Of a stretch of DNA of 64,000 bases, positions 39,976-58,657 are shown one piece after another. The DNA comes from a phage. Below the pieces are notes generated by a model. The model searched no databases. It was not told the DNA's origin and saw nothing but the letters and a program-made list of their open reading frames with translations. Positions within the stretch are counted from its first letter, which is position 1. The number at the start of each line of letters is the position of its first letter. The translations under genes were made by a program, and so were the position numbers. The stretch lies in sequence record NC_100371.1; one strand, given 5' to 3'.

Positions 39976-42048
39976 TTATGAGAAGTCTGGCGGAACAACA
40001 TCTTCTACATACCCTTTCAGAGCAACCTGCCCCATATGCAGAACAGTAGAATCTCTGGCGGTAACAGTGATGCTGTCAGACATTACTTGCGGGTATGCCC
40101 ACACATACTGTTTTACCTCAGGGTATCTATACTCTATGGTTGCCATGTTTCCGCAAATACATCTCCATAAAAATTCTTGGTAATTCCTGGTTGGGTCGTA
40201 GCCATATACCGGAGCAAGCTCTTTGCTAGGAACGAACCCTGCAAGGTATTGTATTTCAGACGGTTTCCAACCTAACTTAACGATAGGTATGTTTACAGAC
40301 TCTTTTGCCTTTTCAATACCTCCCTGCATCACCCAATCGTAGCACTCAGTGCAGAAGAAATCAAGAGCACCTGCTTCCTTTTTATATTGGTCAGCAAGGT
40401 TCAGTTTTTGCGTAAGCTCGGTTTCCATAATAGTGGGGAAAAACAGTAAAGCTGTCATCTGAGCCGATGCAGCGTGTGCTTTTATTGCCTTTGAAATGGC
40501 TGCAATACGAGCGCCAAGCTTACCACGACAAAATGCTACATACTTGTCATAAACACCGCCAGTTTTAGGATCGTCAATAGTCCCAATGTCTAGTGCATAT
40601 TCACCAGTCTCATCATAAAACGCCTGCTTTGTAGGGTAGTCATAAATACAAGGCTTACGAGTATCGGTATTGAACCACCACCACGGTTCACCAATCTGCA
40701 TAATCACTGGCAGGTTGTTTCTCATAGCGGCTGATGCAAAATTCTTAAATACTGCAGTAAGGAAATTCATGCCCTCTTCAATGGTTGGAGACAGGAGGTA
40801 ACTACAAGGCGTATAGCCTGTTTTAGCATAGTTATCGTTCCAGTCTCTCTGGGTCCATTCCAACGGACAGGCATCGCTATAAAGCTCAAAGCTTACAGAC
40901 TGCATAACGTCGAAGTCATGTCGTTTGGCATTGTACATAAAATCATCATGCCATTTATAAGCTGCAGCGTTTAGAGCTCCTGTTTTGTTTATAGACCATT
41001 GGGTTCCTGACCATGTGTAGTCATAATAATGGCTCATACCAACATAATGGTTTATGGTTCCTGTATAGCCCAGACGCTTGATATTGCTCAACACCCTTAA
41101 AGGGGATACGTTCCACATATCGTCATATGCTGTGCAGATCCCAACATCGTGTTCTTTCACCTGAATATTGTTAAGTTGCATCATTTTCCAGCCTGTGTCC
41201 GGCTGAAGAAGATCTAGACGCAACTCACACTCTACATTTTCCGTTCTCGGGTCTGTGCTATTACCTACCCAATCTTTAGGCATAAGTGGTATTAGAATCC
41301 TTCTCACCTGCCGAGGATCAACACCCATCATGTTGTTGTTCTGGTCCATCCCGACGCAGTCCTCGAAATCAATATGAATTTCTGCAACATTCTTATCCTC
41401 TGAGATGCTGACAGCATATTGAGCTAAAGGAACATAGATGATTGTACCATCAACAAGGTCTACAGTCATAATCATCTTTTCAGGGGTGGAGAAGTTGCTG
41501 GCATTGGTTATTGACATTCTGAACCAAAGCTTGGTGTTTCTCATCTCGTAGTGATCATCAAATCCAATGCCGAAATGGTCATACTTGTCAACTGTTTCCC
41601 AAATGCACCCAGCCATGCCCCCATATGTTCTTGACACTAAACGGTTAATACAGCAGTTATTATCCGCAACAATACAGGTGCTTTCAGTCTGCTGTGTGGT
41701 TGTAACCCAGTATCTTGGGTGAAACATTCTCTCCTCAACTGTATCCCAAGATATTCTGTCAAGATTCTCATCTGAAACTATTGTACATTTCGCTCTTTGT
41801 GTTCCAATCATAACCCCTTGGGAGTTTGATGAAAACTCCATAAAGAAGCTCCTTGGCAACCTGTTTGGCAATTTGTCAACAATTTCTACAGGGATCTCGA
41901 TACTGGTTGCCCCAACCGGGATAGTTACATCGCCCTCAACATGATCATAATCCCTACCCGGAACTGCAGTATCCTGAACTGTGCGGTAATGAAACCGTGC
42001 AGCCATTGTAGAGTAATCACGGTAAGGTTTAAAAACAGCTGTTGCCAT
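39976..42048 (-). CDS. baseplate-associated structural protein (possible fibre or glycan-binding/hydrolase)
   Basis: 690 aa; follows gpI-like gene; N-terminal Calx-beta-like segment (RDYDHVEGDVTIPVGATSIEIPVEIVD). Confidence 0.4.
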   Translation of the reverse strand: MATAVFKPYRDYSTMAARFHYRTVQDTAVPGRDYDHVEGDVTIPVGATSIEIPVEIVDKLPNRLPRSFFMEFSSNSQGVMIGTQRAKCTIVSDENLDRISWDTVEERMFHPRYWVTTTQQTESTCIVADNNCCINRLVSRTYGGMAGCIWETVDKYDHFGIGFDDHYEMRNTKLWFRMSITNASNFSTPEKMIMTVDLVDGTIIYVPLAQYAVSISEDKNVAEIHIDFEDCVGMDQNNNMMGVDPRQVRRILIPLMPKDWVGNSTDPRTENVECELRLDLLQPDTGWKMMQLNNIQVKEHDVGICTAYDDMWNVSPLRVLSNIKRLGYTGTINHYVGMSHYYDYTWSGTQWSINKTGALNAAAYKWHDDFMYNAKRHDFDVMQSVSFELYSDACPLEWTQRDWNDNYAKTGYTPCSYLLSPTIEEGMNFLTAVFKNFASAAMRNNLPVIMQIGEPWWWFNTDTRKPCIYDYPTKQAFYDETGEYALDIGTIDDPKTGGVYDKYVAFCRGKLGARIAAISKAIKAHAASAQMTALLFFPTIMETELTQKLNLADQYKKEAGALDFFCTECYDWVMQGGIEKAKESVNIPIVKLGWKPSEIQYLAGFVPSKELAPVYGYDPTRNYQEFLWRCICGNMATIEYRYPEVKQYVWAYPQVMSDSITVTARDSTVLHMGQVALKGYVEDVVPPDFS

Positions 42049-44341: not shown

Positions 44342-47300
44342 TTAGTCGTGAGACTCGTTCCAAGGTCCCTGGAAGCTTGAGTTAGAACGACTAACGATCA
44401 CAGTGGGACAGGAGATTGTGACACCTGTCACGCTAGACGTTGACCACGGTGTGTAAATCTCGATAACAATGTCTATAGTTTGTTCACCCAGACCTGTTAT
44501 CCCTACCGCACACATGCCGTTGTTGTCGTTAAAATACTTCTTGCCAGCAAGGATCTGATGACCAGCTATCCATGCATTCAGCTGGGAGCTGGCAAGAGTA
44601 CCATTCAGTTTAAAGAAGAATGTTACGTTCTTACCCTGACCTGAAACGTTATCTACGTATCTCCACCTCCAACGGCAAACCCTTTGCTGGGAGTTATATA
44701 CTGGAGCACAATCTCCGTAAGTCCTGTGTGCAACGATTGCACCTTCGAACTGGTTAGCACGGATAACGGAAGCTTCTACACGTCCACGGAATGTACCTCC
44801 TGTTGCATCTATGGTCCCTCTAAAGCTACCGTTGTTGGCATAAACATCCCCACGGAAGGTACCACTGGTGGCGTTAACTGCCCCTGTGAAGTTACCTGCA
44901 CTAGCGTTAATGTTACCTTTCACCCACACATCCATAAACTGGGCGTGCCCGTTCTTGTTAATATACCAACCGTATTTGTGGTACCCATTGCCATCGTAGT
45001 TGTTTGACGAAATTTCTTGCGCGATCTTGGCAGAAGAGATCGTGCCGTTCTCTATAAAAGCGTCTTTCAAGAACGCTTGGTTGTTCTTGATTGCGAAAGC
45101 AAGGGTTGCTGTCCCATTGCCCGGGTTGTATACCGCAAAGTTGTTTGCGCTAACCATGAAATATGACTGAACTTGGCCTCCAGAGCCTTCCATGCCTAAC
45201 TGGATACCTGCCACATACTTATTCCCTGCGGAGTCTACCTGTATTTTTGTGCCCCATTGAGCATTTACTTTGCCCTCTAAGTCGGTCACAGCCTTAGATG
45301 TTGTAGCCACTGCAGCTCTGAGCTCTGACACATCCCCAACATCATCAATGATCTCCTGCTTAGCAACAGCAAGTTCTTGACGAATAGCTGACGCTGTGCC
45401 GTTAATAAGATCCACGGTTGCTTTGTTGGTATCGGAAATTGTAGCATCCAGAGCTGTCTTTGTGGAGGTCAGTTTACCATCTAAATCCTTAATCGCCTGT
45501 TTGTTGGTAGAAATCTCCCCACGTGCAGAGGTTATCTGCTCTGACAGTGCAGAGGTTTTCTGATTCAACAAATCGGTGGTGGCCTTGTTGGTATTGGCAA
45601 TCAAGGTATTGAGATCAGTTTTTGCGGTAGTTATCTTACCATCAAGGGTGGTATAGTTTTTAGATACCGTCGCGTTTGTCTGACTAATCTTTTGATCCAG
45701 GGTCTCAGAGGTCTTGTTCAAAAGATCCACTGTCGCTTTGTTGGTGCTCAGGATGCTTGCATCAAGTTCCGTTCTCTGGGTGTTGATCTTGCCATCCAGA
45801 GTTTTATCTCCGGCAAGGTATCCGCTCTCCACACCATCTATTTGTTCTACCAACTCCCCTTTGGCTGCAACCAATTTCTCGTCTAAAGCCTCTGTCTTTT
45901 TGTTCAGAAGATCAGTGGTTGCTTTATTGGTTGTCTCGATCAGGGATGCCAGTCTTCCACTTTCAGTGTTCAGATCGTTGGTGAACTTGTTCTGTGCAGC
46001 AACAAGTTTCCTATCCAGAGCTGTGATATTTCCATTGACATCCTCAAACTTCTGAGTTGTCTCTGTAACTACCGCACCTATCCTATCTCCAAGTTGTTGG
46101 AATGCCTCATCTACCCTTCCGTCCATGTACTTGTTAAGCTCTGTGACACGATTTTCAACCTCCTCGATAGAGGAATCTAAAGTGCTCATCAACTCTTTAT
46201 AAGTTTCTGTCTTTTTAAATTCAGCATCTATCTGAGGCATCAAATCTTCAATAGAGGTGTAGCAGCGTGCAGCGCATTCTACAAACTGAGAACTACCAAA
46301 AGCGTTTGTGGTTCGAATATACCAATAATAAATCTTATCGTTCTGCAGACCTTCAGATGTCCAAGTTGAACCAACACCCATACGGGTGGCTTTTGAAGTA
46401 ACGGTTGCATCACTTGTGTCCGGCAACCTTGTCATACCAGATGTCCAAAAATCATACTGGGTGCTTACACTTGCTAAGTCCCTGCTGTGCGGAATCAAGG
46501 TGATAGCAAAGTATCCCTGCTTAACTTCTACAGAAACAGGAGCTTCAGGTGCTTGAATGTTGAACTCGCAGTAGGCTTCTGGAGATACACCACCTTTATA
46601 AGATGTTGCAACCACGGTTGCTGTGTATGACCCTTTGGTCAATCCTTCTACGCGGACAAACTGCTCGACTGTTTGTGCTGTCCAAATAATCTCTCCGTTC
46701 TTTCTTACCTGCACAATATTTTGAGCATAAGTTCCAACGTTGTCCCAAGCCAAAACACCATGAGTTACTTCCCCAGCTTGAAGAACAGAGTATCTGAAGT
46801 TTTGCGGTTGAGCTACGCCGGACGGGGATATCGGAATATCCACATCTCCAGAATCCGGAAGTTGCCCTGTGGCATCATTCCACTCTTTAGCATCTTGACG
46901 GAGTTTTACCTTGACACCGCCCTTTTTGGTGAACTCCCATTCAAGAACCCTCATTTCTTGGCCCACTATACCAATACTTGGAAGGTCCATCGTAACGTAA
47001 CGCCCAGGCTTAAATTTAAAACCCCGCATATTGCAGGTTACTTCAATAATCCTGCCAGCTCTGGCACGTCTTAAGAATATTGCGGAAACACGCTGAGCCT
47101 GATAAGGACTGGTAACAAAACGATAATCTATATCAATTATCTTTCTTTCTCCGTCCTTCTCTACCCATTCAGGTACGAACACCGACGGGAAGTCTGTTTC
47201 AGAATACCCTTTGGTTGGACTGGTGAATCTTCCGGTTATTGTGTTTGATCTTTTGTCGAAGGAGGCTTCAGGATAGATCTTAACCTCACCGCAAACACAG

Positions 47301-48181
47301 TCCTCACTCAGTGTCATTGTTGCCGGGCCATAGTATGCACCTACCAGTAGACCATATTTGCCAGCCACATAGCTAAGGTCTGCACCACAAGCCTTCAGCA
47401 TCTCTGCCATAATACTTGCTGGTGCTTCGTCCATGTCGAACTCGCCATTAATGGTGTAACGGCGCTCACTGGTTCCGTCCGCGTTTTTTACAGCCTCGTC
47501 GCATATGTTGGCAGCTTCCTTGAAGGACTCCCAGTTGATGGTTTCGTCAGGACATTTAAGGTACGTTCTTAGATAGTCCAGAATCACCAAGGCAGCGTTA
47601 TTGGTATACATCTCTTTACTGATACGAGGATCATAACATTTTTTACCAACCTTGACAAGTGTAACGTTTGGCAACCCAAAAGGAAACTTGTTAGGGTCAA
47701 ACTTAAAGCTGGCACGTAGCCAACTGATACCTCTACCTATCATGTCTGGTGACCACGAAGGGCAGTGTGTTCCCATGAAAGGATCAGAGGTTTTCCTGTC
47801 GTTATGTAACTCCCACGATACCAAATCCCCATACGAGGAAATAGGATTACCGTCGATAAGTATATCTTCTATACCTTCCAAGGGATGATTGGCAAGAACA
47901 ATAGCACAATGAAGGGTTCTGTCCCTGTCCTGCTCCAAAAACGCAAGCAACCCAGATGTGCGTGTCTTCCCATACACTACAGAGCAAGGTGCAGCAGAAG
48001 ATCTGAGAAGTTTTTGTCTATCTTGCTGACTCCTGTAAGATTTGTTTCCTTCGAAAATCTTATCCAGGGTTCTGGTGGTAACAGTGTTCAGGCTGTCAGC
48101 CAGAGCTGCCTTGGATGCGTTCCAGTCATAGCTCGAAGATCTTGCAGAAGCAACGATGTTATCAATCATTGCAATTGGCAT
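44342..48181 (-). CDS. central tail fibre / host-specificity protein, lambda gpJ-like, with internal coiled-coil tandem-repeat insertion
   Basis: 1279 aa. FN3-like region (APEAPVSVEVKQGYFAITLIP ... YYWYIRTTNAFGSSQFVE) and C-terminal region (FMVSANNFAVYNPGNGTATLAF) resemble lambda J from memory; ~200-aa insertion with TNKAT[TV]DLLN-type repeats. Confidence 0.65.
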   Translation of the reverse strand: MPIAMIDNIVASARSSSYDWNASKAALADSLNTVTTRTLDKIFEGNKSYRSQQDRQKLLRSSAAPCSVVYGKTRTSGLLAFLEQDRDRTLHCAIVLANHPLEGIEDILIDGNPISSYGDLVSWELHNDRKTSDPFMGTHCPSWSPDMIGRGISWLRASFKFDPNKFPFGLPNVTLVKVGKKCYDPRISKEMYTNNAALVILDYLRTYLKCPDETINWESFKEAANICDEAVKNADGTSERRYTINGEFDMDEAPASIMAEMLKACGADLSYVAGKYGLLVGAYYGPATMTLSEDCVCGEVKIYPEASFDKRSNTITGRFTSPTKGYSETDFPSVFVPEWVEKDGERKIIDIDYRFVTSPYQAQRVSAIFLRRARAGRIIEVTCNMRGFKFKPGRYVTMDLPSIGIVGQEMRVLEWEFTKKGGVKVKLRQDAKEWNDATGQLPDSGDVDIPISPSGVAQPQNFRYSVLQAGEVTHGVLAWDNVGTYAQNIVQVRKNGEIIWTAQTVEQFVRVEGLTKGSYTATVVATSYKGGVSPEAYCEFNIQAPEAPVSVEVKQGYFAITLIPHSRDLASVSTQYDFWTSGMTRLPDTSDATVTSKATRMGVGSTWTSEGLQNDKIYYWYIRTTNAFGSSQFVECAARCYTSIEDLMPQIDAEFKKTETYKELMSTLDSSIEEVENRVTELNKYMDGRVDEAFQQLGDRIGAVVTETTQKFEDVNGNITALDRKLVAAQNKFTNDLNTESGRLASLIETTNKATTDLLNKKTEALDEKLVAAKGELVEQIDGVESGYLAGDKTLDGKINTQRTELDASILSTNKATVDLLNKTSETLDQKISQTNATVSKNYTTLDGKITTAKTDLNTLIANTNKATTDLLNQKTSALSEQITSARGEISTNKQAIKDLDGKLTSTKTALDATISDTNKATVDLINGTASAIRQELAVAKQEIIDDVGDVSELRAAVATTSKAVTDLEGKVNAQWGTKIQVDSAGNKYVAGIQLGMEGSGGQVQSYFMVSANNFAVYNPGNGTATLAFAIKNNQAFLKDAFIENGTISSAKIAQEISSNNYDGNGYHKYGWYINKNGHAQFMDVWVKGNINASAGNFTGAVNATSGTFRGDVYANNGSFRGTIDATGGTFRGRVEASVIRANQFEGAIVAHRTYGDCAPVYNSQQRVCRWRWRYVDNVSGQGKNVTFFFKLNGTLASSQLNAWIAGHQILAGKKYFNDNNGMCAVGITGLGEQTIDIVIEIYTPWSTSSVTGVTISCPTVIVSRSNSSFQGPWNESHD
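45380..46010 (-). repeat. imperfect tandem repeats (~160 bp unit, about 4 copies) inside the gpJ-like gene
   Basis: Recurrent DNA segments near 45400, 45560, 45720 and 45905 (e.g. gatccac[tg]gt[tc]gctttgttgg) encoding repeated TNKATxDLLN units. Confidence 0.55.
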
Positions 48182-48618
48182 TAATACCTCCAGACATCAA
48201 CAACGATAGAATCTTTCATGTCGAACATAAAGATCCCTTTATCACCTTTCGCCCAAATCTGGTTGTTCCAGAACACACCAGCGGTTAGCCCGTTCAGACC
48301 TTTGAAAATAACAATATCACCACGCTGAACCTGTTTAGGAGTATCCAGTCGAGTCAAAAAGAGATCAAAAATAGTAGGCAGGTGTGTGGTTTTGAAACGA
48401 AGCATGCACCATCTCTTGCTTTCCAACTCTGTTTTATATGTTCCTTCAAAGTTAGAAATAAAATCTGTTCCGTATTGGGCATCAACACACTTAGCCGCAA
48501 AGGTGCAGCAATCGTGGAATCCCCATTCAAACGGGACGGTGGCTTCTTCGTCAAACACTTTCCACAATCTTTCTTGCCAGTCTACTAAACGAGGGTGTGT
48601 GCTCATTAAACCTCCCAA
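48181..48618 (-). CDS. tail assembly protein, NlpC/P60-like (lambda gpK-like position)
   Basis: 145 aa directly upstream of gpJ-like gene (start/stop overlap); HDCCTF and GDIVIF resemble a possibly degenerate NlpC/P60 fold. Confidence 0.35.
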   Translation of the reverse strand: MGGLMSTHPRLVDWQERLWKVFDEEATVPFEWGFHDCCTFAAKCVDAQYGTDFISNFEGTYKTELESKRWCMLRFKTTHLPTIFDLFLTRLDTPKQVQRGDIVIFKGLNGLTAGVFWNNQIWAKGDKGIFMFDMKDSIVVDVWRY

Positions 48619-49172
48619 ATGATCGGGCGGCTTGCCACCTGATCCACATATTTAAAAAATCTGTCATTATCGTTTCTTGAGCTATGGCTTTCCTCTGTGT
48701 ATCGATAAGGAAAACCTCTTAACCAGCTGTTGAAGATGGAAGAGATGGATATAGACAAAGCACTATTCTCCCCTGTCTGAATAGCCATGTCTGTTATAAG
48801 GCCGTCAAACAAGCCATTAGTTGTAACAGGTAAACCATTCTCCATAGCGGTGATATATAACGTGGCACGGCAACCAGAATACTCCGTCTTCAGCAGATCA
48901 CCTACATACTTGGGATCAAACCCGTTCAATGTTGCTACCACAGATCCGAAGTTGGTGGCATCTTTCTCAGACACAGCAGTCAATGTTGCTGATCCACCTA
49001 TTCCTATAAAATGTTGCCCCTCAATCACCACAACACCAGTGCCTGAGCACACCCTGACAGTTCCTGTTGGCAGCTCTAGCTTTGCAGCAATTAAGATCTC
49101 AACACTATCAAGCTCTAGCTTTTCAAGAAATAAATTATCTAATGGCGCTCTTATCATCTTAGAAATCCTCAA
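48606..49172 (-). CDS. putative minor tail protein (lambda gpL-like position)
   Basis: 188 aa; synteny upstream of K-like and J-like genes. Confidence 0.3.
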   Translation of the reverse strand: MRISKMIRAPLDNLFLEKLELDSVEILIAAKLELPTGTVRVCSGTGVVVIEGQHFIGIGGSATLTAVSEKDATNFGSVVATLNGFDPKYVGDLLKTEYSGCRATLYITAMENGLPVTTNGLFDGLITDMAIQTGENSALSISISSIFNSWLRGFPYRYTEESHSSRNDNDRFFKYVDQVASRPIIWEV

Positions 49173-49749
49173 AGAAGTTGATAACTATATTGTCACCTTT
49201 CTGCATAGCATCAACCTTTTGCTTAATCTTATAGAGATCCCTGATATGAAATCTACCCTTCGGAGATTGAGTTATTATCTTCATAGTATCTCCTGCGGCA
49301 ATAGGTTTCCTAAGTCTTGGTGATATGTTTATAACAGCTGCCCCCACACCATCACTTCGCACTGAGGATGTTACAACTTTCAACTCATCATTGACAGATA
49401 TTTTATCCCCAGCCCTGACTATATCTCTGTTCGGTTCCCAACCAACCGTCTTCAAAAAATCGTCATTACCAGTTGGTCCTAGAGCGATTGGCTCATTGGA
49501 AGTAACTGAATGACCATAGGCCTTGATAAGAAAAATGTTTCCATCTTTGTAAACCTGATCAACAAAACTTTTAAGCTCCAATAGCTGGGACTCACTTATA
49601 TTGGAAACCGTCAAAGTTCCTTTCCAGTTGGGCGTGGCATAGGTTACTTTTTGCGTCTTACCTGTAAACGGGCTTTTAAACGTAACAATATCTGCCAGCA
49701 ACTCCAATCTAATATCTGGAAGATATCTAGGTCTTTCCCATAAAAACAT
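49159..49749 (-). CDS. putative tail protein (196 aa)
   Basis: First gene after a terminator/promoter junction; GGAGG RBS. Confidence 0.4.
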   Translation of the reverse strand: MFLWERPRYLPDIRLELLADIVTFKSPFTGKTQKVTYATPNWKGTLTVSNISESQLLELKSFVDQVYKDGNIFLIKAYGHSVTSNEPIALGPTGNDDFLKTVGWEPNRDIVRAGDKISVNDELKVVTSSVRSDGVGAAVINISPRLRKPIAAGDTMKIITQSPKGRFHIRDLYKIKQKVDAMQKGDNIVINFFEDF

Positions 49750-49780: not shown

Positions 49781-49840
49781 ATTTTACCAGATTTTAAGTT
49801 AATACGCAATACAAACAAAAAGCCCTCGCCGAAGCGAGGG
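49781..49840 (-). promoter_or_regulatory. intrinsic terminator (UUCG-loop hairpin) followed by extended -10 promoter-like motif
   Basis: Minus strand: CCCTCGC-TTCG-GCGAGGG (49823-49840) + CUUUUUGUUUG, then TTGCGT (49809-49804), 17-nt spacer, TGG-TAAAAT (-10 at 49786-49781). Confidence 0.5.
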
Positions 49841-49854
49841 CAATACTTTATACT

Positions 49855-50187
49855 TTAAAGTGCTTCCAAGGTAGATACTGATGGGTCGAACATGTTCAAC
49901 CTTATCGGATCTACAATTTTTCCGCTTTTAGAGATGATATTTTCTGCATCTTCGTCCAGAGCCAGAACGTTGACATAAAACAATTTACTTTTCTCGCAAA
50001 CTGGGTAGACAACCATGTTGCCAAACTCATCCTCGGCCTCATAAGTGTCTTCAGTTTCTGTGTAAATGAACCCGACAACCTCTACAAGAAGGGTGTTTTG
50101 CAACACCTCATTCTCGTAAAAGCCGATTTCGTCCATGAAACCGTTAAAATCCTCCCTACCAGTAAACCCAAGGGTAAAAGTATTCAT
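49855..50187 (-). CDS. hypothetical protein (110 aa), possible fibre chaperone
   Basis: Start overlaps the stop of the 1479-aa fibre gene; acidic. Confidence 0.4.
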   Translation of the reverse strand: MNTFTLGFTGREDFNGFMDEIGFYENEVLQNTLLVEVVGFIYTETEDTYEAEDEFGNMVVYPVCEKSKLFYVNVLALDEDAENIISKSGKIVDPIRLNMFDPSVSTLEAL

Positions 50188-53100
50188 TATTCAACACTCT
50201 CCATCATAAGCTGGGTGTCGGTCAATGCAGAGTTCCAAACTCTTACATCTTTAATATGACCAAACAAATGTCTTTCACCTGTCGCCGTTTGACCTCCGAG
50301 ACGGATGAGAGCGCCTCCTGCCAGGAATTCCCAAGAAGATTGCGTTTCCGTACTCACCAATCCGTTAGCAAAAGAGCAGGTTTTACCGTCATCTTTTATC
50401 CTGAACCCAATTTTCAATTTACGTGTTTTAGCCATCTCATAGACACGTCTGTTTGAACCGCCAATATCACAATATGGATAACCATCTTCTGCAATATTTG
50501 CTGCAGAGCCAAATCCCATGATAAATGCAGCACCGTATTGGTGGCCCTCTGTATCAATAACTCTAGGAGCTGCGTTAGGAGCTTTTCCCCAACCTCTCCA
50601 GTTGGCATCCACCGTAGCGGCGATGGTGAACGGTCTAGGTGCTAAATTATCAGTCATTGGGAATTTACAAAGGTCTGCTGCCCTAGTCACTGGTGAAGAC
50701 CCTGTAGGGATAAACGAGGACTCACAAGATCCTAACTCGAACTGAGGTATTGCGACGTCAACCCAATCCCCTACGGCATGTTGAGAACCATCCGGTGGGG
50801 CAATCTGGAACTGGCACCCAATATTCATGTCAGAGTCCACTGCCTCAAACGTAGCAACAACTCTTATCCAAGCAGGTCCGGCTGTTTGCCATCTCTCAGC
50901 TTTTACTTTAATTCTCCCAGCTGCAACACCTGTTGTTTTAACTTCAAGTGTTGACAGGTTAACATAGGCATCACCTTGGAATACTGTGGTGGATCCGTTA
51001 TACATGTCAAATCTTACACGCAGTCTCTGGTGAGCTTTACCACCTCTTGCAATAATAGACCCAGTACAAAATTTCTCAGCACCTGTTACATCTGCACCAC
51101 GGGTGGCTGGAACTGTAGCCAGGTTTAACGCTGTTGTTTCTACACCGGATACGTTGCTTACTGTAAATCTTGCACCTTTTGTGCCGTTGGTGTTTGTTAC
51201 AGTGTTACCGACCGTAATCTGTGACTGGGCTCCCCATTTGCTCGGATCTTCACTGTTAAGCATCAGATTTGTCCTTTGACCTTCAATGAGCAGACCATCT
51301 CTTTCGAAACGTGGTTGGTTTGCCTGTGCAACAGCCATGACACCGCGCTTAGTGAAATAGGTTGCGGTAGAAGGTCTGGAGAAGATCATCTCCCCCTCAC
51401 CTAACACAGGTTTCAGGTTAGAGGTTAAAGGTAGCCACAGATCTGGCATAACTGGGGCAGTTGTACTTTCTGGGAAGCTAGTTCTCTTCCAAGGGCTCCA
51501 GTTCATTCCACTGCCAGTGTTATTATAATACCTTTCCCACGTTCCACCAAGATACATTTTATATATCTGGACACACCCTGTACCCTCGTTGGCAGAGTTT
51601 CTAAGCACGATAAGCGTACCAGCCATCTGCTGTCCTGGTGGGTAGTGTCTCTCCGCTGTGGCGTTGGCATTTGCCTCTTGATGGTAAATACCTTCGCGAT
51701 CCGCTTTGTAATCGTTAAGGTCGCTAGTTCCCAACCCTTGTCCACGGTGCTGAATAACTTTGTTCCACGCTCTGTGGTTACCCTGCTCTATGGAACGGGT
51801 GTACAGCTGATCTAAACGACCTGCCATCTGGAAAGCATAGTTTCCAGAAAATGCCACAGACAACCCACCAACAACCATTGAACCTTCAGGCCCGTTGACG
51901 TTGCCAGCCAGTATTTTGGACGGATTATTATTTCCGAACTGGTTGTTCCAGTCTGCACCTGTGTGGCATACAAAACCACCTGGGGCCGAGAAAGTACCGT
52001 CTTTGTTGAAATTGTAGAATCTGTGAGCTGTGCCAACAACATCGCGAACAATAACTTGACCCGCTTCTGGAGTAGATCTGAACTCTGCCTGACCTTTGAG
52101 ACCAGCACCATTGCCGCATTTAGAGGTAAATGTGCCGTTAGTCAGATCCTCTGTCCCATCTGATGCACACTGGAATCCTGCATTAGAGAATAACGCCTTT
52201 CTAGGACTGCTGTAGCACAAATAGTCAATACCGTCTGCCCATAGCTCGACTTTCGGCATGTTCATTTTGCTCATCACTGCATAGCGTTCAGCAGTGCCTA
52301 TATAGTGCCACTGTGTGCCGCCGCCAGTGTAGAACCCAGAAGTACCTTTGAAGTCAACAATAGGTCTGGTGTTTGTATTGTTATCTCCAAGAACAGCAAG
52401 ATTCAAGTCTGCCGACTGGAGAGGTGAAACGAACTTAACACCGTCCTGATTGTTTGTTACAGAGCCGACCTGATAATCTTGCTCTCTGGTAAACACTTCG
52501 ACAACATTTCTACTTGCGTATATGCTAACAGGGAAAGCACGAGCCTCTACATAGAAAGCAACATACTCTTGTTTACCCCTTGTTGGAGCAACCATCCCAA
52601 GAATTGCTTTTTCATTCTGGTAGAAATTTACTACCCCGTAGAAAGAGTCTCCTCTGTCTGTCCAACCACCAGTTCTATAGTGACACTGCAAGGTGGCGCA
52701 GTTCATAGGGTCACCGCCAGATGAAGATCTGGTAACTATGGTAATATCAGTGCCAGTTGCTGGAGCATAGTACGGATCTGTTCTGACGATGATCGGGTAG
52801 TATTTCCCATCTTCCATTCCTGCGGTTCTTGGCAGTGTTAAGAAGTCTTTTACACCTGCTGCTATAGGAACTTTGAACAGATTCTGAGCATCTGCTAAAG
52901 TTGTAGCCCCAGTGCCGCCTGCGGCTTGAGGTAAAGGTTCCCACTTGGCCTTCCGGTTGTTATACACACCCCATTCCAGAGTGCCGTTACCGGATTCATC
53001 CATCCCTCCATCCCAAACGACCATTTTTGCGGCTTTCTTGGATCCCCAGAACCCTCTTTCTGCTCCTGAACTACGGATCCATTCCCCAAGTCCCCAGTTT

Positions 53101-54626
53101 GTCAGCTGACCAGTGAGATCCCCAACCTGCATGTATTTAGGACAATCTAATACGCCATCCTCACGGAATCCTAAATATCTATGAGTTTCAGATCCTTTTG
53201 CACCTTTGTGGAGGTGAATTGTTAACCAAGCCTTATTATCGTTTCTTACCTCGGAGTAGATCCTATACCCATGCTCAAGAACACCGTCGGTGTCATATTT
53301 ATCCCCATGGAGAATACCTGAAGCAGATTTAACATCTCCTGAGTATTGAGCCAAGTAAAGGTGCCCGAAAGCAGGGGAGTTGTTTTTACCAAGGCCGATA
53401 TGAGATCTGAAGGTGTCATCATTCCGAGGTCTGACCATCGGCTGCCATGCAGTCCACTGGTTTGTGTTGGCCTGATAGGTTCTCAAATACCAAACATCTA
53501 CGTTAGAGAATGGATAGTATTCCTGACGACAGCCAGTGCCACCGTTAGCATTGTTCTGCCAAACAATCAGGTGACCAGCACCAGAACCTGCAGGGTAACC
53601 ATTTGCCTCAGTTGCATTAGCGGTTATCGGCTGGTAGTATATGCCGTCCTGATTACCAGTCAAGTTATTGATATTGAAATTTGCCTCAAGGGCTGCACGT
53701 TGCTTATAGAAAGCACCGATATTGATACGGACTCCAGCGGCATCTCTAGCTCCTGTACCGCCTTGCTCTATAGCAAGAGGTTGCCACGAGGCTGTTTGTT
53801 GGTTCCACATGCCCCAACGGCCTGCTGCATCAAGCTGCAAATACCCTGCCGTGTTTAAATCATCTCCGGCACGGATAACTGTTCTTGTTGGGTTGTTTGC
53901 CTCTAGGCGTTTAAATTCATCACGAAGTGCTATTCTTTTTGTTGTTGCCACACCGTTGGTCACTGCAATGGTGTACATGGCTCCGGAGGTAGCGCCACGG
54001 AAAATACCATCAACAGTTGTAGTATCACGACGAGATACCACACCGTTCAGAAATTTTTCACCAGCTGCTTCAGAAGGGTAGTTAGTAGTTCTTCCCTCTT
54101 CAATAACTGCAGGACCCACAAAGTTGACAAGGTGAATAACATCGCCTACAGTATGCACTGTACCAAAATCTACCCGCTGTGCAAGTGCTTTAGCATCGTT
54201 GGCTGTCTGAACAGTAACATCCATTACATCCTGGACAGACTGCCCTTCGGCTGTCATGATCATAGATGCGCCAATGGTAGATTCCAGCTCCTCCCTTAAG
54301 GACGGATCTGTATATACCATCCATGCAGCGTCAGTAATCCCCCCGTCGGAGTACGGTGAAGACAGTGCAGGAACAGTGTGTGGAAATTCGCCTTTCCAAC
54401 GCAGGTAGAGGTCTTCCTCTTCGAAGTAGGCAAAATCCATTGGGCCGTTTAACTTACCACCTTCCTTAAAGGAGATTACATGAGAAACAGTCCCATCCAC
54501 ATGGACAACATCGCCAATTTTTACACGACGGGTCAGGTCTGGTTGTTGAACAACCAGGTAATCATCCTCTGTCACTGCGGTAGTGGCAGGAAGAGATTCA
54601 ATTCTGACAACTTTAATATCAGCCAT
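50187..54626 (-). CDS. large tail fibre / receptor-binding protein with N-terminal anchor domain and C-terminal LamG/ConA-like lectin domain
   Basis: 1479 aa. N-terminal ~100 aa shared with 57263..57931; repeated W-x-PL-x(3-5)-GGTGA motifs; C-terminal LFGHIKDVRVWNSALTDTQL resembles the LamG-type signature. Confidence 0.6.
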   Translation of the reverse strand: MADIKVVRIESLPATTAVTEDDYLVVQQPDLTRRVKIGDVVHVDGTVSHVISFKEGGKLNGPMDFAYFEEEDLYLRWKGEFPHTVPALSSPYSDGGITDAAWMVYTDPSLREELESTIGASMIMTAEGQSVQDVMDVTVQTANDAKALAQRVDFGTVHTVGDVIHLVNFVGPAVIEEGRTTNYPSEAAGEKFLNGVVSRRDTTTVDGIFRGATSGAMYTIAVTNGVATTKRIALRDEFKRLEANNPTRTVIRAGDDLNTAGYLQLDAAGRWGMWNQQTASWQPLAIEQGGTGARDAAGVRINIGAFYKQRAALEANFNINNLTGNQDGIYYQPITANATEANGYPAGSGAGHLIVWQNNANGGTGCRQEYYPFSNVDVWYLRTYQANTNQWTAWQPMVRPRNDDTFRSHIGLGKNNSPAFGHLYLAQYSGDVKSASGILHGDKYDTDGVLEHGYRIYSEVRNDNKAWLTIHLHKGAKGSETHRYLGFREDGVLDCPKYMQVGDLTGQLTNWGLGEWIRSSGAERGFWGSKKAAKMVVWDGGMDESGNGTLEWGVYNNRKAKWEPLPQAAGGTGATTLADAQNLFKVPIAAGVKDFLTLPRTAGMEDGKYYPIIVRTDPYYAPATGTDITIVTRSSSGGDPMNCATLQCHYRTGGWTDRGDSFYGVVNFYQNEKAILGMVAPTRGKQEYVAFYVEARAFPVSIYASRNVVEVFTREQDYQVGSVTNNQDGVKFVSPLQSADLNLAVLGDNNTNTRPIVDFKGTSGFYTGGGTQWHYIGTAERYAVMSKMNMPKVELWADGIDYLCYSSPRKALFSNAGFQCASDGTEDLTNGTFTSKCGNGAGLKGQAEFRSTPEAGQVIVRDVVGTAHRFYNFNKDGTFSAPGGFVCHTGADWNNQFGNNNPSKILAGNVNGPEGSMVVGGLSVAFSGNYAFQMAGRLDQLYTRSIEQGNHRAWNKVIQHRGQGLGTSDLNDYKADREGIYHQEANANATAERHYPPGQQMAGTLIVLRNSANEGTGCVQIYKMYLGGTWERYYNNTGSGMNWSPWKRTSFPESTTAPVMPDLWLPLTSNLKPVLGEGEMIFSRPSTATYFTKRGVMAVAQANQPRFERDGLLIEGQRTNLMLNSEDPSKWGAQSQITVGNTVTNTNGTKGARFTVSNVSGVETTALNLATVPATRGADVTGAEKFCTGSIIARGGKAHQRLRVRFDMYNGSTTVFQGDAYVNLSTLEVKTTGVAAGRIKVKAERWQTAGPAWIRVVATFEAVDSDMNIGCQFQIAPPDGSQHAVGDWVDVAIPQFELGSCESSFIPTGSSPVTRAADLCKFPMTDNLAPRPFTIAATVDANWRGWGKAPNAAPRVIDTEGHQYGAAFIMGFGSAANIAEDGYPYCDIGGSNRRVYEMAKTRKLKIGFRIKDDGKTCSFANGLVSTETQSSWEFLAGGALIRLGGQTATGERHLFGHIKDVRVWNSALTDTQLMMESVE

Positions 54627-54640
54627 TCTTTCTCCTGAAA

Positions 54641-54657
54641 GGGGGCAAACAGCCCCC
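54641..54657 (-). terminator. intergenic hairpin (weak terminator/attenuator) between 865-aa and 1479-aa genes
   Basis: GGGGGC-AAACA-GCCCCC with only a short U tract on the minus-strand RNA, immediately before the RBS AGGAGAAAG of the next gene. Confidence 0.35.
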
Positions 54658-54663
54658 TATATG

Positions 54664-57261
54664 TTAAAGGTACAATCCACGGTATTGAGCATAAAGACCC
54701 AGACCGCGAAGGATTTCGCCAGAGTGATAGCCAACCGGATCAGAAACTGCCCAGCAGCCGTTTAAAATATTATCCCCGTTAATGAAGTGGTGCTTTTGCA
54801 GTAACTTCACACAGGCCTCTACAACAATATCTATTTGAGGTATTGTCTCTGAATACCCGCAAAGACCTAGCCAGCAGCAACCTGCAAGCCATTCACCTAC
54901 CACCCACATCCTGTCACCTCTGTCTTGATAAGAGTATCCACCAGAGGTGTTAAAGTCTGTAGGCAAATTTCCTGAATGGGATGACTGGAATCTGTTGAGG
55001 AACCATGCCCATTTCTGGCAGAACAGGAATAGTCTTTCATCAACAGGCTCTTTATGTTTCTTGAGCTCATATATTGTGCGGCACGCAGCAACAAAAGATC
55101 TTGACTGGAGTTTAGAGTTATCTACCATCTCCCACCAACCAGTCAACCCTTCATTACCTCTCTGCCATACATAACGTGAGGCAACTGGACCCTCTGTCTT
55201 AAATGTATTGTTATACCAGACTTGAGAGTCATACAGAAAGCCTATTGTATTTGACAATCTATGGCGGTCTATGTTTTCTGCGCCCATGCAGTAGACTGCT
55301 GGGTATTGCATACCAGGGTAGGGCCAATTTGGCCTTTCCTCTAAGAGATAATTTTCCTTATCTATCACCTTTCCGGCAGGGAACACACCCGGCGTGTGCC
55401 TGTATGCACCTTGCTTGTAGTTTCTGACATAACAATCGCCAACCTTAGCGGTCGATTCTGTCTTGCTTGCCATCCATACACTAAACCAAATTAGGTAAGC
55501 ATCTCTATCTGCAACATAAAATTGCGGTAGCGTGTTGACGCAATACAGATCAAACAAGCCATTGCCTATCTGCCTGTCGCTCAGACTGAAATCTACAGAG
55601 GTGATCCCCTTGGTGTTAGCAAAGAAAGGTTTAATCTCCTCTTCGGTGTGATGAGGTTGTGTAGGGTCTAGTTTAAAATCTCCCAGAGTAAGAGTTTCTG
55701 TTATCCATTGTCCATTAGTGGCATATAGATCAGCATACCATAACCAACGGTCTTTGTCAAGAAATTTGACCCTTACCATCTCATCATCTGATCGATAAGT
55801 CACTGAGTTTAAAGAAATCTCTCTTCCAAAATTGAAAGTTACTTTGCCTTTTACTATATTGCAACGGGTGAAGTTGTCAGAGTGGTTGTAAATGTCGGTA
55901 TCATACTGCATACTAACACTAGCGCCACCGCTTACGGCAATGTTTTCCTCTTTTGGCAAGAGATATGGGTTACCGTCTTTACCAACCACCTCTACAAAAT
56001 CAGTAACCTTGGCAACTGTTTCTGTTACCTCTGCCCCTCCAAAAGGGACACCTATTCTGTACTGTTTTTTGTTATTGTTGCCATCATTAAGGATGAAATG
56101 TGGCTGGAACAGAACCCCTTCTCCTCCGAAATTCATAACAATTTCAGCATCTCTGCCTATTTTGTATGTAGTCCCTTTTTGGATTATTTCGCAAGGCTGG
56201 CGTGCGTTCATTCTAAAATTGATATATCCGTCACTATCCCTACTTATGACAGGTACTGTTCCTGCAACTAGACAAGTGCCATCTGTGAACGGGGCCTTAA
56301 TCAACGTGGTCTTTCTGAACAGCTTGTCGTAGGCATTTATATCACTAAAATTAAGCAACTTATTGTAAGACTGCTTAAACGCGGTGTAATACTTTTCCTC
56401 ACCTGTCAGGGTGTAGAGTTGATAACAAGCGTCACACCACATCTCTTCCCCATCTAACTCTGGGGCTTGATTGTCTGCAACCACGTTTATAGGATTTACA
56501 ATTACAGGGGATCCAGCAGGTATCACCGATCCGCCCTGCTCTTGAGGCAATCTCACACAATAGGTAACCTTGTGGTTGCCTGTAACACCCTTATCTTGCA
56601 GTTGGATTGTGCCGAACTCTGCAGACGTATGACCACTGTCGGCTATGCTACCGTTGGCCCAATAGCGGTTACCATCCCATGCTATATACCACTCAACCCA
56701 CCAACTTAATCCGGAAGTTGTCCAATTAGGATTAGCATCTGTGCCGCCGTAAACATCAGAGTCTACAGTGTTTCTTCCTAAAACACCGTTATACGCCTGA
56801 AAAGCCTTGTCCAAGTATTCTCCCCATGTCGGGGATCCTGCTGGTATTTTTCCTCTACCTTTGTTAAAAGACACAACCACATCTTTAAACCCACCATGTG
56901 ATGGAACTCCATCTGTGGATAACGGGTAGTGGGACAATCTTTGCATTTTACTTTCTACTGCATATACGCCCAGAAGATGACTGTTGTAGGCTTCCCAAGC
57001 CTCTTTGGCCCTGTCTAGATAAAAATCGCTTTTTGATGCCCTGTATGCCTCAATGTATCCCAGAATCAACACAGCTTGGGACTCATGCATTGCCCAATCA
57101 TTATTTATCTTACTCCCTGACCAACCTGACGCTATAAGTCCATCCTGGTTTACCAGTTTGTTCTGTGTAGGGAGATTGGTAATACCTGTGTTGTTATCGA
57201 GGCACTTCCTGTGCCCCTCGATCATCTGAAATACGTTATCAATGTTGTGTTGAATACGCAT
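54664..57261 (-). CDS. virion structural protein, putative tailspike / glycan-degrading enzyme
   Basis: 865 aa in fibre cluster; aromatic-rich sequence faintly reminiscent of alpha/alpha-toroid glycosidases. Confidence 0.35.
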   Translation of the reverse strand: MRIQHNIDNVFQMIEGHRKCLDNNTGITNLPTQNKLVNQDGLIASGWSGSKINNDWAMHESQAVLILGYIEAYRASKSDFYLDRAKEAWEAYNSHLLGVYAVESKMQRLSHYPLSTDGVPSHGGFKDVVVSFNKGRGKIPAGSPTWGEYLDKAFQAYNGVLGRNTVDSDVYGGTDANPNWTTSGLSWWVEWYIAWDGNRYWANGSIADSGHTSAEFGTIQLQDKGVTGNHKVTYCVRLPQEQGGSVIPAGSPVIVNPINVVADNQAPELDGEEMWCDACYQLYTLTGEEKYYTAFKQSYNKLLNFSDINAYDKLFRKTTLIKAPFTDGTCLVAGTVPVISRDSDGYINFRMNARQPCEIIQKGTTYKIGRDAEIVMNFGGEGVLFQPHFILNDGNNNKKQYRIGVPFGGAEVTETVAKVTDFVEVVGKDGNPYLLPKEENIAVSGGASVSMQYDTDIYNHSDNFTRCNIVKGKVTFNFGREISLNSVTYRSDDEMVRVKFLDKDRWLWYADLYATNGQWITETLTLGDFKLDPTQPHHTEEEIKPFFANTKGITSVDFSLSDRQIGNGLFDLYCVNTLPQFYVADRDAYLIWFSVWMASKTESTAKVGDCYVRNYKQGAYRHTPGVFPAGKVIDKENYLLEERPNWPYPGMQYPAVYCMGAENIDRHRLSNTIGFLYDSQVWYNNTFKTEGPVASRYVWQRGNEGLTGWWEMVDNSKLQSRSFVAACRTIYELKKHKEPVDERLFLFCQKWAWFLNRFQSSHSGNLPTDFNTSGGYSYQDRGDRMWVVGEWLAGCCWLGLCGYSETIPQIDIVVEACVKLLQKHHFINGDNILNGCWAVSDPVGYHSGEILRGLGLYAQYRGLYL

Positions 57262-57262
57262 C

Positions 57263-57931
57263 TTAGATAGCTCCTGCGATGATCAGTGCCCCGTACCAAG
57301 TTAGTCCATTATCATATGTTTCCAACTTGAAAATGTCTGTTGCACCAGCTGTAAATGTTAGGATAGGATCTCTTCCGTAGGCCCATTTAACATTGTCAGG
57401 CCAATAAACTTTGTTACCACCAGAGGTCTGCGTTATGCATACAGTTATAGTTCTTGCCACTCCGTCGAGCCCTTCTGTTTGATTTTCAAAAGAGATTGTG
57501 GTGTTTGAAGTGAGCCGAACTTTAAACGTGTCTGCAACGTCAAGATCCATGTCAAGTTGACCACCAATAGAGCCGTAATCAACTATCCTACCTGAAGAAG
57601 TTGCAGCAAGCTCTCCAAAAACAGACCATGCTTTTGCAGACACACCTCCGGCACCCTCTACAGTGGAATCTGGGAGGATTATTTTAGGATAATCTCCATT
57701 CCATGTGTAGTAGCGCTTAGTTTCCGGATCATAAGCAAAATCCTTCTTGCTCTTAAGATAACCGCCCTCTGTGAAATAAACTATTTTAGTAATGCTAAGA
57801 TCATTGACAACATCATCAATCTTAGCCTTTCTTGTCCCGTCAGTCTGGTTGACAACCAAGAAGTCATCACTCAAGACTGTTTCTGCATCTTCAAGATCTG
57901 GGATTGGTATTGTAGGATAAGCTACAGCCAT
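57263..57931 (-). CDS. tail fibre adaptor-like protein sharing N-terminal domain with the 1479-aa fibre
   Basis: 222 aa; N-terminus LEDAETVLSDDFLVVNQTDGTRKAKIDDVVNDL aligns with the 1479-aa protein N-terminus LPATTAVTEDDYLVVQQPDLTRRVKIGDVVHVD. Confidence 0.5.
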   Translation of the reverse strand: MAVAYPTIPIPDLEDAETVLSDDFLVVNQTDGTRKAKIDDVVNDLSITKIVYFTEGGYLKSKKDFAYDPETKRYYTWNGDYPKIILPDSTVEGAGGVSAKAWSVFGELAATSSGRIVDYGSIGGQLDMDLDVADTFKVRLTSNTTISFENQTEGLDGVARTITVCITQTSGGNKVYWPDNVKWAYGRDPILTFTAGATDIFKLETYDNGLTWYGALIIAGAI

Positions 57932-57940
57932 GATTTCTCC

Positions 57941-58657
57941 TTAGTTAACATCAATAGCACGACCAGACTGGTTGGCAATAGCCTCATCATTAGAGGTAGC
58001 AATAACACCAGAATATTCGCGCTCATCTGGAGCAAGCGTCCAGGTATTGCGGTTAATGGTTTGTTCTGCATCAGTCATCAGCAGATCTTTATCCTGAGTC
58101 AACAGAGAACCTACAGGGATCGGGTTTTCCATCTCAGGACCAGCATACTGGTTCCACCACGTAGCATCCCCAGTTCTAGGCAATCTGAAATTGATCAGGT
58201 AGTACAGTTTATTAGCCCACTTAATCCAACCTTCATCATCACAAAGAGAGGTTGCCCCGTCATCAGGCTGTGGGTAGGTAAACTGATCAAGACCTACGAA
58301 AGCCAGCCTTACAATCTCGTTCTCCTTGGTAACAACCTCAAAGAACGCTTGGTATGTTCTCGATCTTCGATCCATAGTAGACTGGAAGTTTATGATGTTT
58401 AGCACATCTGGCTCTTGTCTTGCCACTTCCATAATCTTGTTATCAAGAACAGTCTTCATGACCTTCTTACTGAGAAAGTCCATATAAGGGAAACCAAACA
58501 ACTCATCAAAGTACCAGCTCCCCTTCCATGTATTAAACCTCATCCACAGGCGCTGGCGCAGACTTACTTGGTTTGAATCTATCAACTCAAGACCTTTGTC
58601 TATCGCCAAATCACCTGTCTGTGGGTCCATCAATATATCACTATAAAGCGTAGCCAT
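57941..58657 (-). CDS. putative baseplate protein (gp25/W-like or Mu gp46-like)
   Basis: 238 aa; N-terminal LAIDKGLELIDSNQVSLRQRLWMRFNTWKGSWYFDELFGFPY resembles small baseplate wedge proteins. Confidence 0.4.
   Translation of the reverse strand: MATLYSDILMDPQTGDLAIDKGLELIDSNQVSLRQRLWMRFNTWKGSWYFDELFGFPYMDFLSKKVMKTVLDNKIMEVARQEPDVLNIINFQSTMDRRSRTYQAFFEVVTKENEIVRLAFVGLDQFTYPQPDDGATSLCDDEGWIKWANKLYYLINFRLPRTGDATWWNQYAGPEMENPIPVGSLLTQDKDLLMTDAEQTINRNTWTLAPDEREYSGVIATSNDEAIANQSGRAIDVN

Follow-up and report, generated by a model that had tools for sequence, protein, structure and literature searches.

The 64,000-nt stretch of phage DNA analysed here (sequence record NC_100371.1; the window) comes from an rV5-like myovirus of E. 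coli (Vequintavirus). Within its baseplate and tail-fibre operon, a small tail protein (p222) and a long tail fibre (p1479) begin with the same N-terminal module and are encoded on either side of a glycoside-hydrolase (GH)-like protein (p865). The genes of this whole region lie on the minus strand and are transcribed in the order p238, p222, p865, p1479, and p110, followed by a siphovirus-type Dit/J-like cassette and the wedge genes. p238 (57941..58657) is a baseplate sheath initiator of the gp25/W-like type, as indicated by phrog_4233 and phrog_120 ('baseplate wedge subunit') and by synteny with phage phi92, whose orthologous gp139 has been assigned as the sheath initiator in the cryo-electron microscopy (cryo-EM) map. 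Since p238 stands directly upstream of p222, the block belongs to the baseplate operon.

p222 (222 amino acids (aa), 57263..57931), identified as an open reading frame (ORF), by orthology, and by its match to phrog_7760 (E = 2.6e-118), is composed of a two-part anchor (N1 and N2) and a conserved C-terminal domain (C-domain), and is proposed below to act as an anchor-adaptor. The start codon of p865 (54664..57261) lies 1 nt past the p222 stop; its product is a virion-associated (alpha/alpha)6-barrel protein of GH-like type with beta-domain inserts and without an anchor module. p1479 (1479 aa, 50187..54626) is a long mosaic lateral tail fibre, an allele of rV5 gp41 (ORF; phrog_6578; mosaic pattern in tblastn; allele map), and the small gene p110 (49855..50187) overlaps the p1479 stop by 1 nt (ATAATGA). 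According to synteny and annotation, p222, p865, and p1479 are the counterparts of rV5 gp43, gp42, and gp41 and of PVP-SE1 gp51, gp50, and gp49, respectively; according to orthology and synteny, p238, p222, and p865 are the counterparts of phi92 gp139, gp140, and gp141. Over 7.7 kb, the region shares 92-96% nucleotide identity with phages B9-1, rV5_ev146, and BASEL Bas48 CarlMeissner (92.6% for Bas48). Some 18-24 GenBank records of the MG0656xx series ('Campylobacter phage' C11, C12, A12a, D1, and others) are 92-100% identical to the E. coli rV5-like phages here, which probably reflects mislabelled hosts or contaminants.

The N-terminal module of p222 and p1479

A first-pass annotation had proposed that p222 and p1479 share an N-terminal anchor domain while being otherwise unrelated, and both halves of this proposal hold. 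BLASTP aligns p222 aa 8-105 with p1479 aa 7-105 at 38 identical residues out of 99 (38%; 71.6 bits, E = 2e-18), and 500 shuffles of the 110-aa N-terminus gave 17.3 ± 2.1 bits with a maximum of 26.2, against 72 for the real alignment (z = 25.6). Taken separately, the two halves remain significant (aa 1-45, z = 10.8; aa 46-110, z = 17.8), the real score being reached in none of 2000 shuffles. The alignment thus passes the comparison with shuffled sequences that the first-pass annotation had named as able to refute it. Past aa ~110, no meaningful similarity between the two proteins is left (z = 3.4). No further carrier of the module was found among the ORFs of all six frames of the window, and an all-against-all comparison of 24 tail ORFs showed similarity only in the p222/p1479 pair and between two short-tail-fibre paralogues.

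The module consists of two separable parts, N1 (aa ~5-45) and N2 (aa ~46-105). In p222, N1 corresponds to aa 1-45 (57797..57931) and N2 to aa 46-105 (57617..57796); in p1479, the module covers aa 1-105 (54312..54626; N1 aa 1-44, N2 aa 45-105) and is supported by BLASTP, by Pfam, and by hidden Markov models (HMMs; N1 2e-21, N2 3.6e-29). The consensus of N1 is approximately T-[IV]-K-[IV]-S-[DE]-L-P-x-A-x(6)-D-x-L-V-V-x-Q-x-D-x-T-[KR]-K. No Pfam family covers N1, and a PDB search with the N1 profile yielded no significant match; aa 28-58 of the crAss001 tail fibre gp22 (PDB 7qoj_J, …ETVVLVQNGKNVKASVKDVV…) resemble the profile below threshold (E = 0.73, not significant).

N2 belongs to PF18668 (Tail_spike_N) in both proteins (40.4 bits, E = 3.1e-10; gathering threshold 25 bits; p222 aa 51-104 and p1479 aa 46-103). 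Its sequence matches in the PDB include 9occ gp13, 8x8m, and the tailspike proteins (TSPs) TSP3, TSP1, and TSP4 of phage CBA120, and the matches fall in the N-terminal head regions of CBA120 TSP1/3/4, G7C gp63.1, Shigella B2 Gp48, and others. The AlphaFold2 monomer model of p222 is poor overall (mean predicted local distance difference test (pLDDT) score 46), with N1 and the C-domain unresolved and only aa 50-100 confident (pLDDT ~75). The top Foldseek matches of this confident part are again G7C gp63.1, Shigella B2 Gp48, and CBA120 TSP3/1/4 (4qnl, 9d84, 6nw9/5w6f, 4oj5, 5w6h), with a probability of 0.96-1.0 over 59-72 aligned columns and just one match at E <= 0.001. The model is thus supportive, rather than strong, evidence that N2 adopts the CBA120 TSP/G7C gp63.1 head fold. 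Pfam gave no match to the P22-type tailspike head-binding domain PF09008 at E <= 0.01; for rV5 gp43, an HHpred match to 2VNL with a probability of 96 has been reported (PMC3606486).

The prediction that other phages would carry the module on different C-termini was borne out by carriers of 214-1599 aa with unrelated C-termini. The module occurs twice per genome throughout the Vequintavirinae (tblastn). An exhaustive profile search of 1.84 billion representatives returned 576 matches, in which proteins of 214-1599 aa begin directly with the complete module and the many remaining matches listed have N2 alone, in an internal position. A word-indexed homologue search with the 114-aa module returned one fragment only, and an IMG/VR locus search near-identical relatives only. 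The N1 HMM matched 15 proteins from five genera: the small and 'fusion' proteins of PVP-SE1, EC152, and EspYZU08 (gp51 and gp49 in Seunavirus), gp140 and the spike at the gp143 position in phi92 and SD2 (phi92 gp140, E = 8e-19; phi92 endosialidase gp143, E = 1.5e-10), and five proteins of Mydovirus AV124. The C-termini joined to N1 include a GDSL esterase, a SASA acetylesterase, a pectate-lyase-like beta-helix with an S74 chaperone, and an S74-ended fibre, with GDSL, SASA, and S74-chaperone domains all present among the five AV124 proteins; ConA-like and beta-helix domains are also found joined to the module. N1, with its ~40 residues, is specific to rV5-like and phi92-like myoviruses. A 'tail fibers protein' (NINP13076) first taken as a case from the Ackermannviridae was rejected, as it belongs to another Seunavirus.

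The two parts do not always occur together. N1 stands without N2 in the phi92-like phages (phi92 gp140 and gp143) and, in AV124, in four of its five carriers, and in some relatives (P0019/23/27/28) an insert of 60-80 aa separates the two. N1 is thus what these proteins have in common, and N2 is a head or spacer domain that may be missing. A Gp10_C protein (PF21939, 55 bits) resembling Erwinia phage M7 gp039 (L019:3911-4984 and L017:4588-5661) shows an N1-like start, IQINALPQATTPLSDADIF..., with z = 6.8-8.5 against p1479 of the window and phi92 gp140 and an HMM E value of 0.046. This protein could possibly link N1 to direct attachment at the wedge and provide a gp10-type socket for the two shared-anchor proteins encoded downstream.

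Furthermore, the anchors vary together within genomes. In each of the five lineages tested, the small protein agrees over its first ~50 aa with the N-terminal end of a long fibre or spike encoded nearby in that genome (z = 12.6 in the window, 25.4 in PVP-SE1, 9.8 in phi92, 24.7 at locus L016, and 15.1 at locus L017; the real score was reached in none of 1000 shuffles each time), and between the three lineage groups the anchors are unrecognisable (z < 3). Such a joint change in both proteins is expected if both must fit one lineage-specific socket, and it favours a common type of socket.

The small protein p222 and its partner p865

The C-domain of p222 (aa 113-222, 57266..57595) is a conserved domain of ~105 aa that is p222's own and is proposed below as the docking knob for p865. 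Its alignment shows the motif Q-G-x-G-x-N-x-V-x-W-P-x-x-[VI]-K-W-x-x-G-x-x-P-x-L, which is conserved in phages of E. coli, Vibrio, Erwinia, Yersinia, and Burkholderia. Conservation across such different hosts argues for a protein-protein interface and not for binding of a host receptor. At the other end, p222 is under strong purifying selection in its N-terminal module, the first 110 aa being at least 99% identical in 109 records.

p865 has an (alpha/alpha)6 toroid fold and is glycoside-hydrolase-like. Its sequence identity to solved enzymes is 9-13%, and its family profile gave only marginal matches to (alpha/alpha)6 epimerases, and no phage structure, among the PDB sequences; neither a Pfam family nor an anchor module was found in it. 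The (alpha/alpha)6 fold also occurs in epimerases and terpene cyclases. The family comprises 525 phage records from many groups, including the group of phage S144. Hydrolase activity or fold has been predicted for ORF17, a 'tail protein' of S144, a phage with 32 structural ORFs confirmed by mass spectrometry (PMC7432712).

The p865 homologue is abutted directly upstream (overlap or gap of at most 12 nt) by an ORF ending in the C-domain at all 15 loci examined. These loci represent 10 lineages, namely Vequintavirus, Seunavirus, Justusliebigvirus, a prophage-like locus of Burkholderia, Erskinevirus, Kolesnikvirus, Rosemountvirus, Asteriusvirus, the podoviral Pienvirus, and Vibrio phage D533, and in distant lineages the C-domain upstream of p865 homologues is recognised with E = 1e-12 to 4e-43. 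AV124, which is without the C-domain, is also without a p865 homologue. What precedes the C-domain in the small protein varies from lineage to lineage and, in the Yersinia phage phiR8-01 (T7-like, Pienvirus), is the attachment domain of T7 tail fibres, PF03906 (36.3 bits, cutoff 25.2). None of the p865 homologues of any lineage carries N1 or N2. Because the conserved C-domain is always paired with an anchorless glycosidase-like gene downstream, p222 is more likely an adaptor than an independent fibre; it is not a variable receptor cassette and probably represents an anchor-plus-adaptor. p865 itself is part of one unit with the two genes that flank it.

Two other arrangements of p865 were considered and rejected. 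About 113 extra PHROG positions had prompted a look for homologues with fused N1 or N2, and all of them begin with the same conserved motif. A role of p865 as universal docking platform for N1 was dismissed because AV124 has five N1 proteins and no p865 homologue. Moreover, a contig of Burkholderia vietnamiensis (CADERB010000011, 7460-26195) encodes, beside a phage integrase, a 911-aa p865 homologue and, in front of the latter, a SPRY-domain protein of 473 aa that ends in the C-domain, so that the pair is also present in a prophage-like element. The Escherichia phage phAPEC6 (MK817115) has a 181-aa ORF immediately before gp314c (L020:5439-5981, plus strand) that ends in the C-domain (E = 1.1e-26) and is not annotated, a missed gene call in the deposited record. 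No earlier description of the C-domain/GH pairing (phiR8-01, Rosemountvirus) was found in the literature searched, the coverage of which is incomplete, and the pairing of an adaptor with an enzyme appears to be undescribed so far.

The exchangeable fibre p1479 and its operon

p1479 is matched over its full length by only 34 phage records. Among the records listed, the partial-length ones from Vequintavirus cover aa 1-1048 and no more (87-94% identity), and hence carry a different tip. The exchangeable distal tip (aa ~1049-1479, 50190..51482) has a ConA/laminin-G-like end (phrog_1419; weak Laminin_G_3 match) and is, over aa ~1050-1473, 28-46% identical to the side or lateral fibres (Stf) of lambda-, T1-, and T5-like siphoviruses, and the shaft (aa ~170-970) resembles the lateral fibres of T5-like and Seuratvirus phages. 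At least the first ~290-330 aa are retained by every natural allele examined (617, 827, 988, 1266, and 1481 aa; P0002-P0005 and HeinrichReichert). The proximal region (aa ~106-290, 53757..54311), which extends to the first GGTGA junction motif at aa 289, is kept in all Vequintavirus alleles examined. Allele junctions fall at internal repeats, namely GGTGA (aa 289 and 570) and a repeat of ~50 aa (aa 318-370 and 969-1020), which look like built-in recombination joints. The ~50-aa repeat ends in N-x-A-N-x-G-T-G-C, and the repeats coincide with the junctions of the deletion or shuffle alleles P0003 and P0004.

p1479 behaves as a host-range cassette, its tip and shaft being swapped between close relatives and also found in the side fibres of siphoviruses. 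The suggestion in the first-pass annotation that the two proteins are modular host-range cassettes accordingly applies to p1479 and not to p222, with its nearly invariant first 110 aa. Its related idea of interchangeable attachment to one baseplate site is supported in so far as the N-terminus is an attachment-type module with PF18668 as its second half; p222 and p1479 as alternative occupants of one site are contradicted by rV5, where gp41, gp42, and gp43 were all detected together in virions by proteomics (PMC3606486).

CarlMeissner, whose tip allele is the same (95% identity), also has p110, which is absent from HeinrichReichert (tip with S74 chaperone), PVP-SE1, and the phi92-like loci. 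p110 is found only alongside this tip allele, and fibres whose tip ends in an S74 intramolecular chaperone lack it, so that the tip and p110 move as a pair; p110 is a probable tip-specific accessory or assembly factor that is exchanged along with the tip. A strong terminator-like hairpin follows p110 (49841..49822; 8 bp, 7 of them GC, then TTTTTG), and the interval between p865 and p1479 (54627..54663) contains a GC-rich hairpin (GGGGGC-TGTT-GCCCCC) that lacks a long T-run, so that the variable fibre and p110 are bracketed by structured intergenic elements.

The window shows further peculiarities, all on the minus strand. Past p110, a siphovirus-type tail-tip cassette is placed inside the myovirus baseplate operon (44342..49749); it encodes the Dit-like p196 (phrog_1302), p188 (phrog_2048), p145 (DUF6950), and the lambda-J-like p1279 (Ig_J_second, Phage_Tail_Tip), and is absent from the Seunavirus and phi92-like loci examined. 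p690 (39976..42048) combines the N-domain and TIM barrel of a Pfam 'non-contractile tail sheath protein' (PF23844, PF23845) with Calx-beta; its homologue gp142 in phi92-like phages is encoded between the p865 homologue and the N1-bearing spike, and p690 follows the wedge genes in the window. Finally, p616 (32935..34785) and p1244 (29149..32883, GTG start) match positions 1-616 and 636-1877 of phrog_15684, a family of 1878 positions that elsewhere represents one giant tail protein and here corresponds to two ORFs 51 nt apart. The split may be genuine or may stem from a frameshift or a sequencing error.

Attachment of the appendages, alternatives, and known systems

Taken as a whole, it is somewhat more probable than not that N1/N2 forms a plug on two simultaneous baseplate appendages and that p222 is the adaptor for p865. 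The ~105 shared residues would constitute a virion-attachment plug made of the N1 peptide and the PF18668 head domain, and N1, with or without N2, would fix trimeric appendages to the baseplate periphery, where p222 and p1479, both as trimers, would be attached simultaneously, each through a socket of one common kind. p1479 would be the directly plugged lateral fibre, recombining and exchangeable beyond aa ~290 together with its tip and p110, while p222 would be a short plugged stub whose C-terminal knob most likely tethers the anchorless p865, so that p222 and p865 would form a two-protein enzymatic appendage. We infer the docking of N1/N2 to the baseplate, the same socket type for both proteins, and the binding of p865 by the C-domain. 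A contact of the N-termini with the virion is suggested by analogy, by the presence of all three proteins in rV5 virions, and by the co-variation of the anchors. The socket would probably lie on or next to the J-like/I-like wedge p496/p228 (phi92 gp145/gp146), since in M7 the weak N1-like start belongs to a Gp10_C protein that is the first fibre-like gene past the wedge genes. A broader generalisation, which we regard as evenly poised, is that p222 is part of an unrecognised and widespread two-gene tail module in which a trimeric stub (lineage-specific anchor plus ~105-aa knob) tethers an anchorless glycosidase-like protein. Such a module would extend over myoviruses of at least nine lineages and a T7-like podovirus, the stub being re-fitted in each lineage with the plug of that lineage's own fibres.

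Several observations weigh against the attachment scheme. N1 is disordered, with low confidence, in the p222 monomer model and lacks a significant solved homologue; no baseplate socket for N1/N2 was identified; and no conserved interface segment stands out in p865. Within the Vequintavirinae alone, the identities of paralogues and orthologues are star-like (37-50%), and the co-variation of the anchors becomes apparent only when distant lineages are compared. In Rosemountvirus and jumbo phages, the pair is encoded away from the baseplate genes, and its place in the virion may differ. Enzymes with the (alpha/alpha)6 fold are usually monomeric, and their fit with the stoichiometry of a trimeric knob is questionable. 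PVP-SE1 gp69 contains a weak C-domain-like match and has no GH neighbour, and neighbouring genes that occur together do not by themselves demonstrate binding of p865 by the C-domain. Furthermore, no T4 gp10-like XD domain was detected in 16 tail ORFs of the window (Pfam sequence profiles only), so that the CBA120 docking scheme is not simply transferable.

The most serious competitor, which we nevertheless consider unlikely, treats p222 and p1479 as independent receptor-binding proteins (RBPs) in the same socket, with the p222 knob binding a host molecule and p865 attached by other means and merely co-transcribed. The shared anchor is real under this explanation as well, p222 is laid out as a miniature spike with an attachment segment and a knob (cf. 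Pa223 gp52), its family is labelled 'tail fiber protein' in PHROG, and C-domain-like sequence ends longer fibre proteins (phrog_3904 and the 473-aa Burkholderia protein). The authors of the phi92 study likewise noted that their gp140 model resembles the TNF-knob spike Pa223 gp52 (PMC13450770). On the other hand, true host-range genes vary, whereas the p222 N-terminus is nearly invariant; a motif common to phages of diverse hosts would be unexpected for a receptor-binding tip; and p865 is anchorless in all lineages and yet a virion protein that always directly follows the C-domain gene. Branching of the CBA120/G7C type, in which N2 would dock on a T4 gp10-like XD of another fibre and both proteins would branch off a third fibre instead of the baseplate, appears distinctly improbable. 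It draws on the membership of N2 in PF18668 and the binding of the CBA120 TSP1 head to TSP4 XD3, on the Kolesnikvirus Gp10_C protein (M7 gp039, 55 bits) that is encoded just upstream of two shared-anchor proteins and itself starts N1-like, and on phi92, where fibre II branches from the base of fibre I (PMC13450770). Against this stand the absence of a gp10-like domain from the tail proteins of the window that were scanned and the dispensability of N2, as phi92 gp140 and gp143 and four AV124 proteins have N1 alone.

The modest identity of 38%, the star-like divergence of paralogues and orthologues, and the lack of a confident fold for N1 could also be accommodated if the similarity were merely left over from an ancient duplication or recombination event, or marked a generic nucleus for trimerisation or folding, with no shared docking. 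This is very improbable: the pair is conserved in all genera examined, strong purifying selection acts on the module in p222, and the sharing of an anchor between small protein and fibre recurs with unrelated anchors in two further lineages, which a passive relic does not predict. The scheme of two simultaneous plugged appendages thus remains the preferred reading.

The rV5-like and phi92-like phages are among the coliphages with the broadest host range and are used in biocontrol and therapy. The plug residues, their carriers (gp43 and gp41; phi92 gp140 and gp143), and the probable recruitment of gp42 by gp43 would provide testable assignments and a rational junction for swapping RBPs, and, if the broader generalisation holds, N1 would be the plug for engineering new fibres onto these phages. 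The co-varying plugs and the stub/enzyme pair also bear on the unresolved fibre composition of rV5/phi92-type phages (PMC8594841; PMC13450770). The shared anchor as such adds little new because the principle is already established: the same N-terminus is found on unrelated C-termini in related phages, which is the architecture of RBPs with conserved anchors and exchangeable C-termini, a standard textbook principle. A 2026 atlas of Klebsiella phage RBPs, for instance, lists the N-terminal domain of ORF210 (TSP1) among the most widely reused anchors. The shared anchor reported here is an ordinary case of this architecture, and one that had partly been noticed before. In the 2011 annotation of PVP-SE1 (GU070616), gp49 is called a 'putative fusion protein' with an N-terminus similar to rV5 gp43, which is the same observation on a protein with another C-terminus than p1479 (712 aa, called colanic-acid-degrading in relatives), made without functional interpretation, dissection into sub-modules, or a link to the middle gene.

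The closest parallel for the module is CBA120 (Kuttervirus), whose TSP1-4 share the PF18668 head fold and place several receptor-acting proteins on one baseplate via conserved N-termini with exchangeable C-termini. There, the TSP1 head domain docks on TSP4, and docking of head domains to gp10-like domains is known from both CBA120 and G7C (PMC8825819). In contrast to CBA120, no AD or XD1-3 (T4 gp10-like) docking domains are detectable here, the additional N1 of ~40 aa in front of the head domain is the element shared across relatives, and the carriers are a long fibre and a short stub instead of beta-helix tailspikes. For p222 and p865, the nearest relatives in concept are G7C gp66/gp63.1 and K1E/K1-5/SP6, in which an anchored protein carries an anchorless enzyme, as is proposed here; gp63.1 is moreover the best Foldseek match of the p222 model. 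p865 fits this pattern of adaptor and cargo, being anchorless and always co-encoded with an anchored partner. In the G7C and K1-5 podoviruses, however, the cargo is a trimeric tailspike whose own N-terminus docks to a gp10-like or adaptor domain, whereas here the cargo would be an (alpha/alpha)6 GH-like protein with an N-terminus not recognisable as a docking part, and a C-terminal knob would serve as the dock. Short N-terminal parts that alone fix a trimeric fibre or spike, as proposed for N1, are represented by PF03906 of T7 gp17 and the segment of Pa223 gp52, which have no sequence similarity to N1 and are analogues, not homologues.

In the 'Swiss army knife' of phi92 (gp140-gp143; fibres I-III), gp143 bears N1 like p1479, and the fibres are co-expressed on a Mu/P2-like wedge; unlike in the window, gp140 and gp143 are without N2, an endosialidase takes the place of the mosaic lateral fibre, and the lambda-J-like cassette is absent. 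The 2026 cryo-EM study of phi92 did not place gp140 and gp141 and left fibre II and the arm of fibre I unassigned (PMC13450770); if the broader generalisation holds, gp43-gp42 (phi92 gp140-gp141) would be fibre II or the fibre I arm. Compared with these known systems, what differs here is the uncurated N1 as the true shared element and the small carrier as an apparent adaptor for an enzyme that is not a tailspike.

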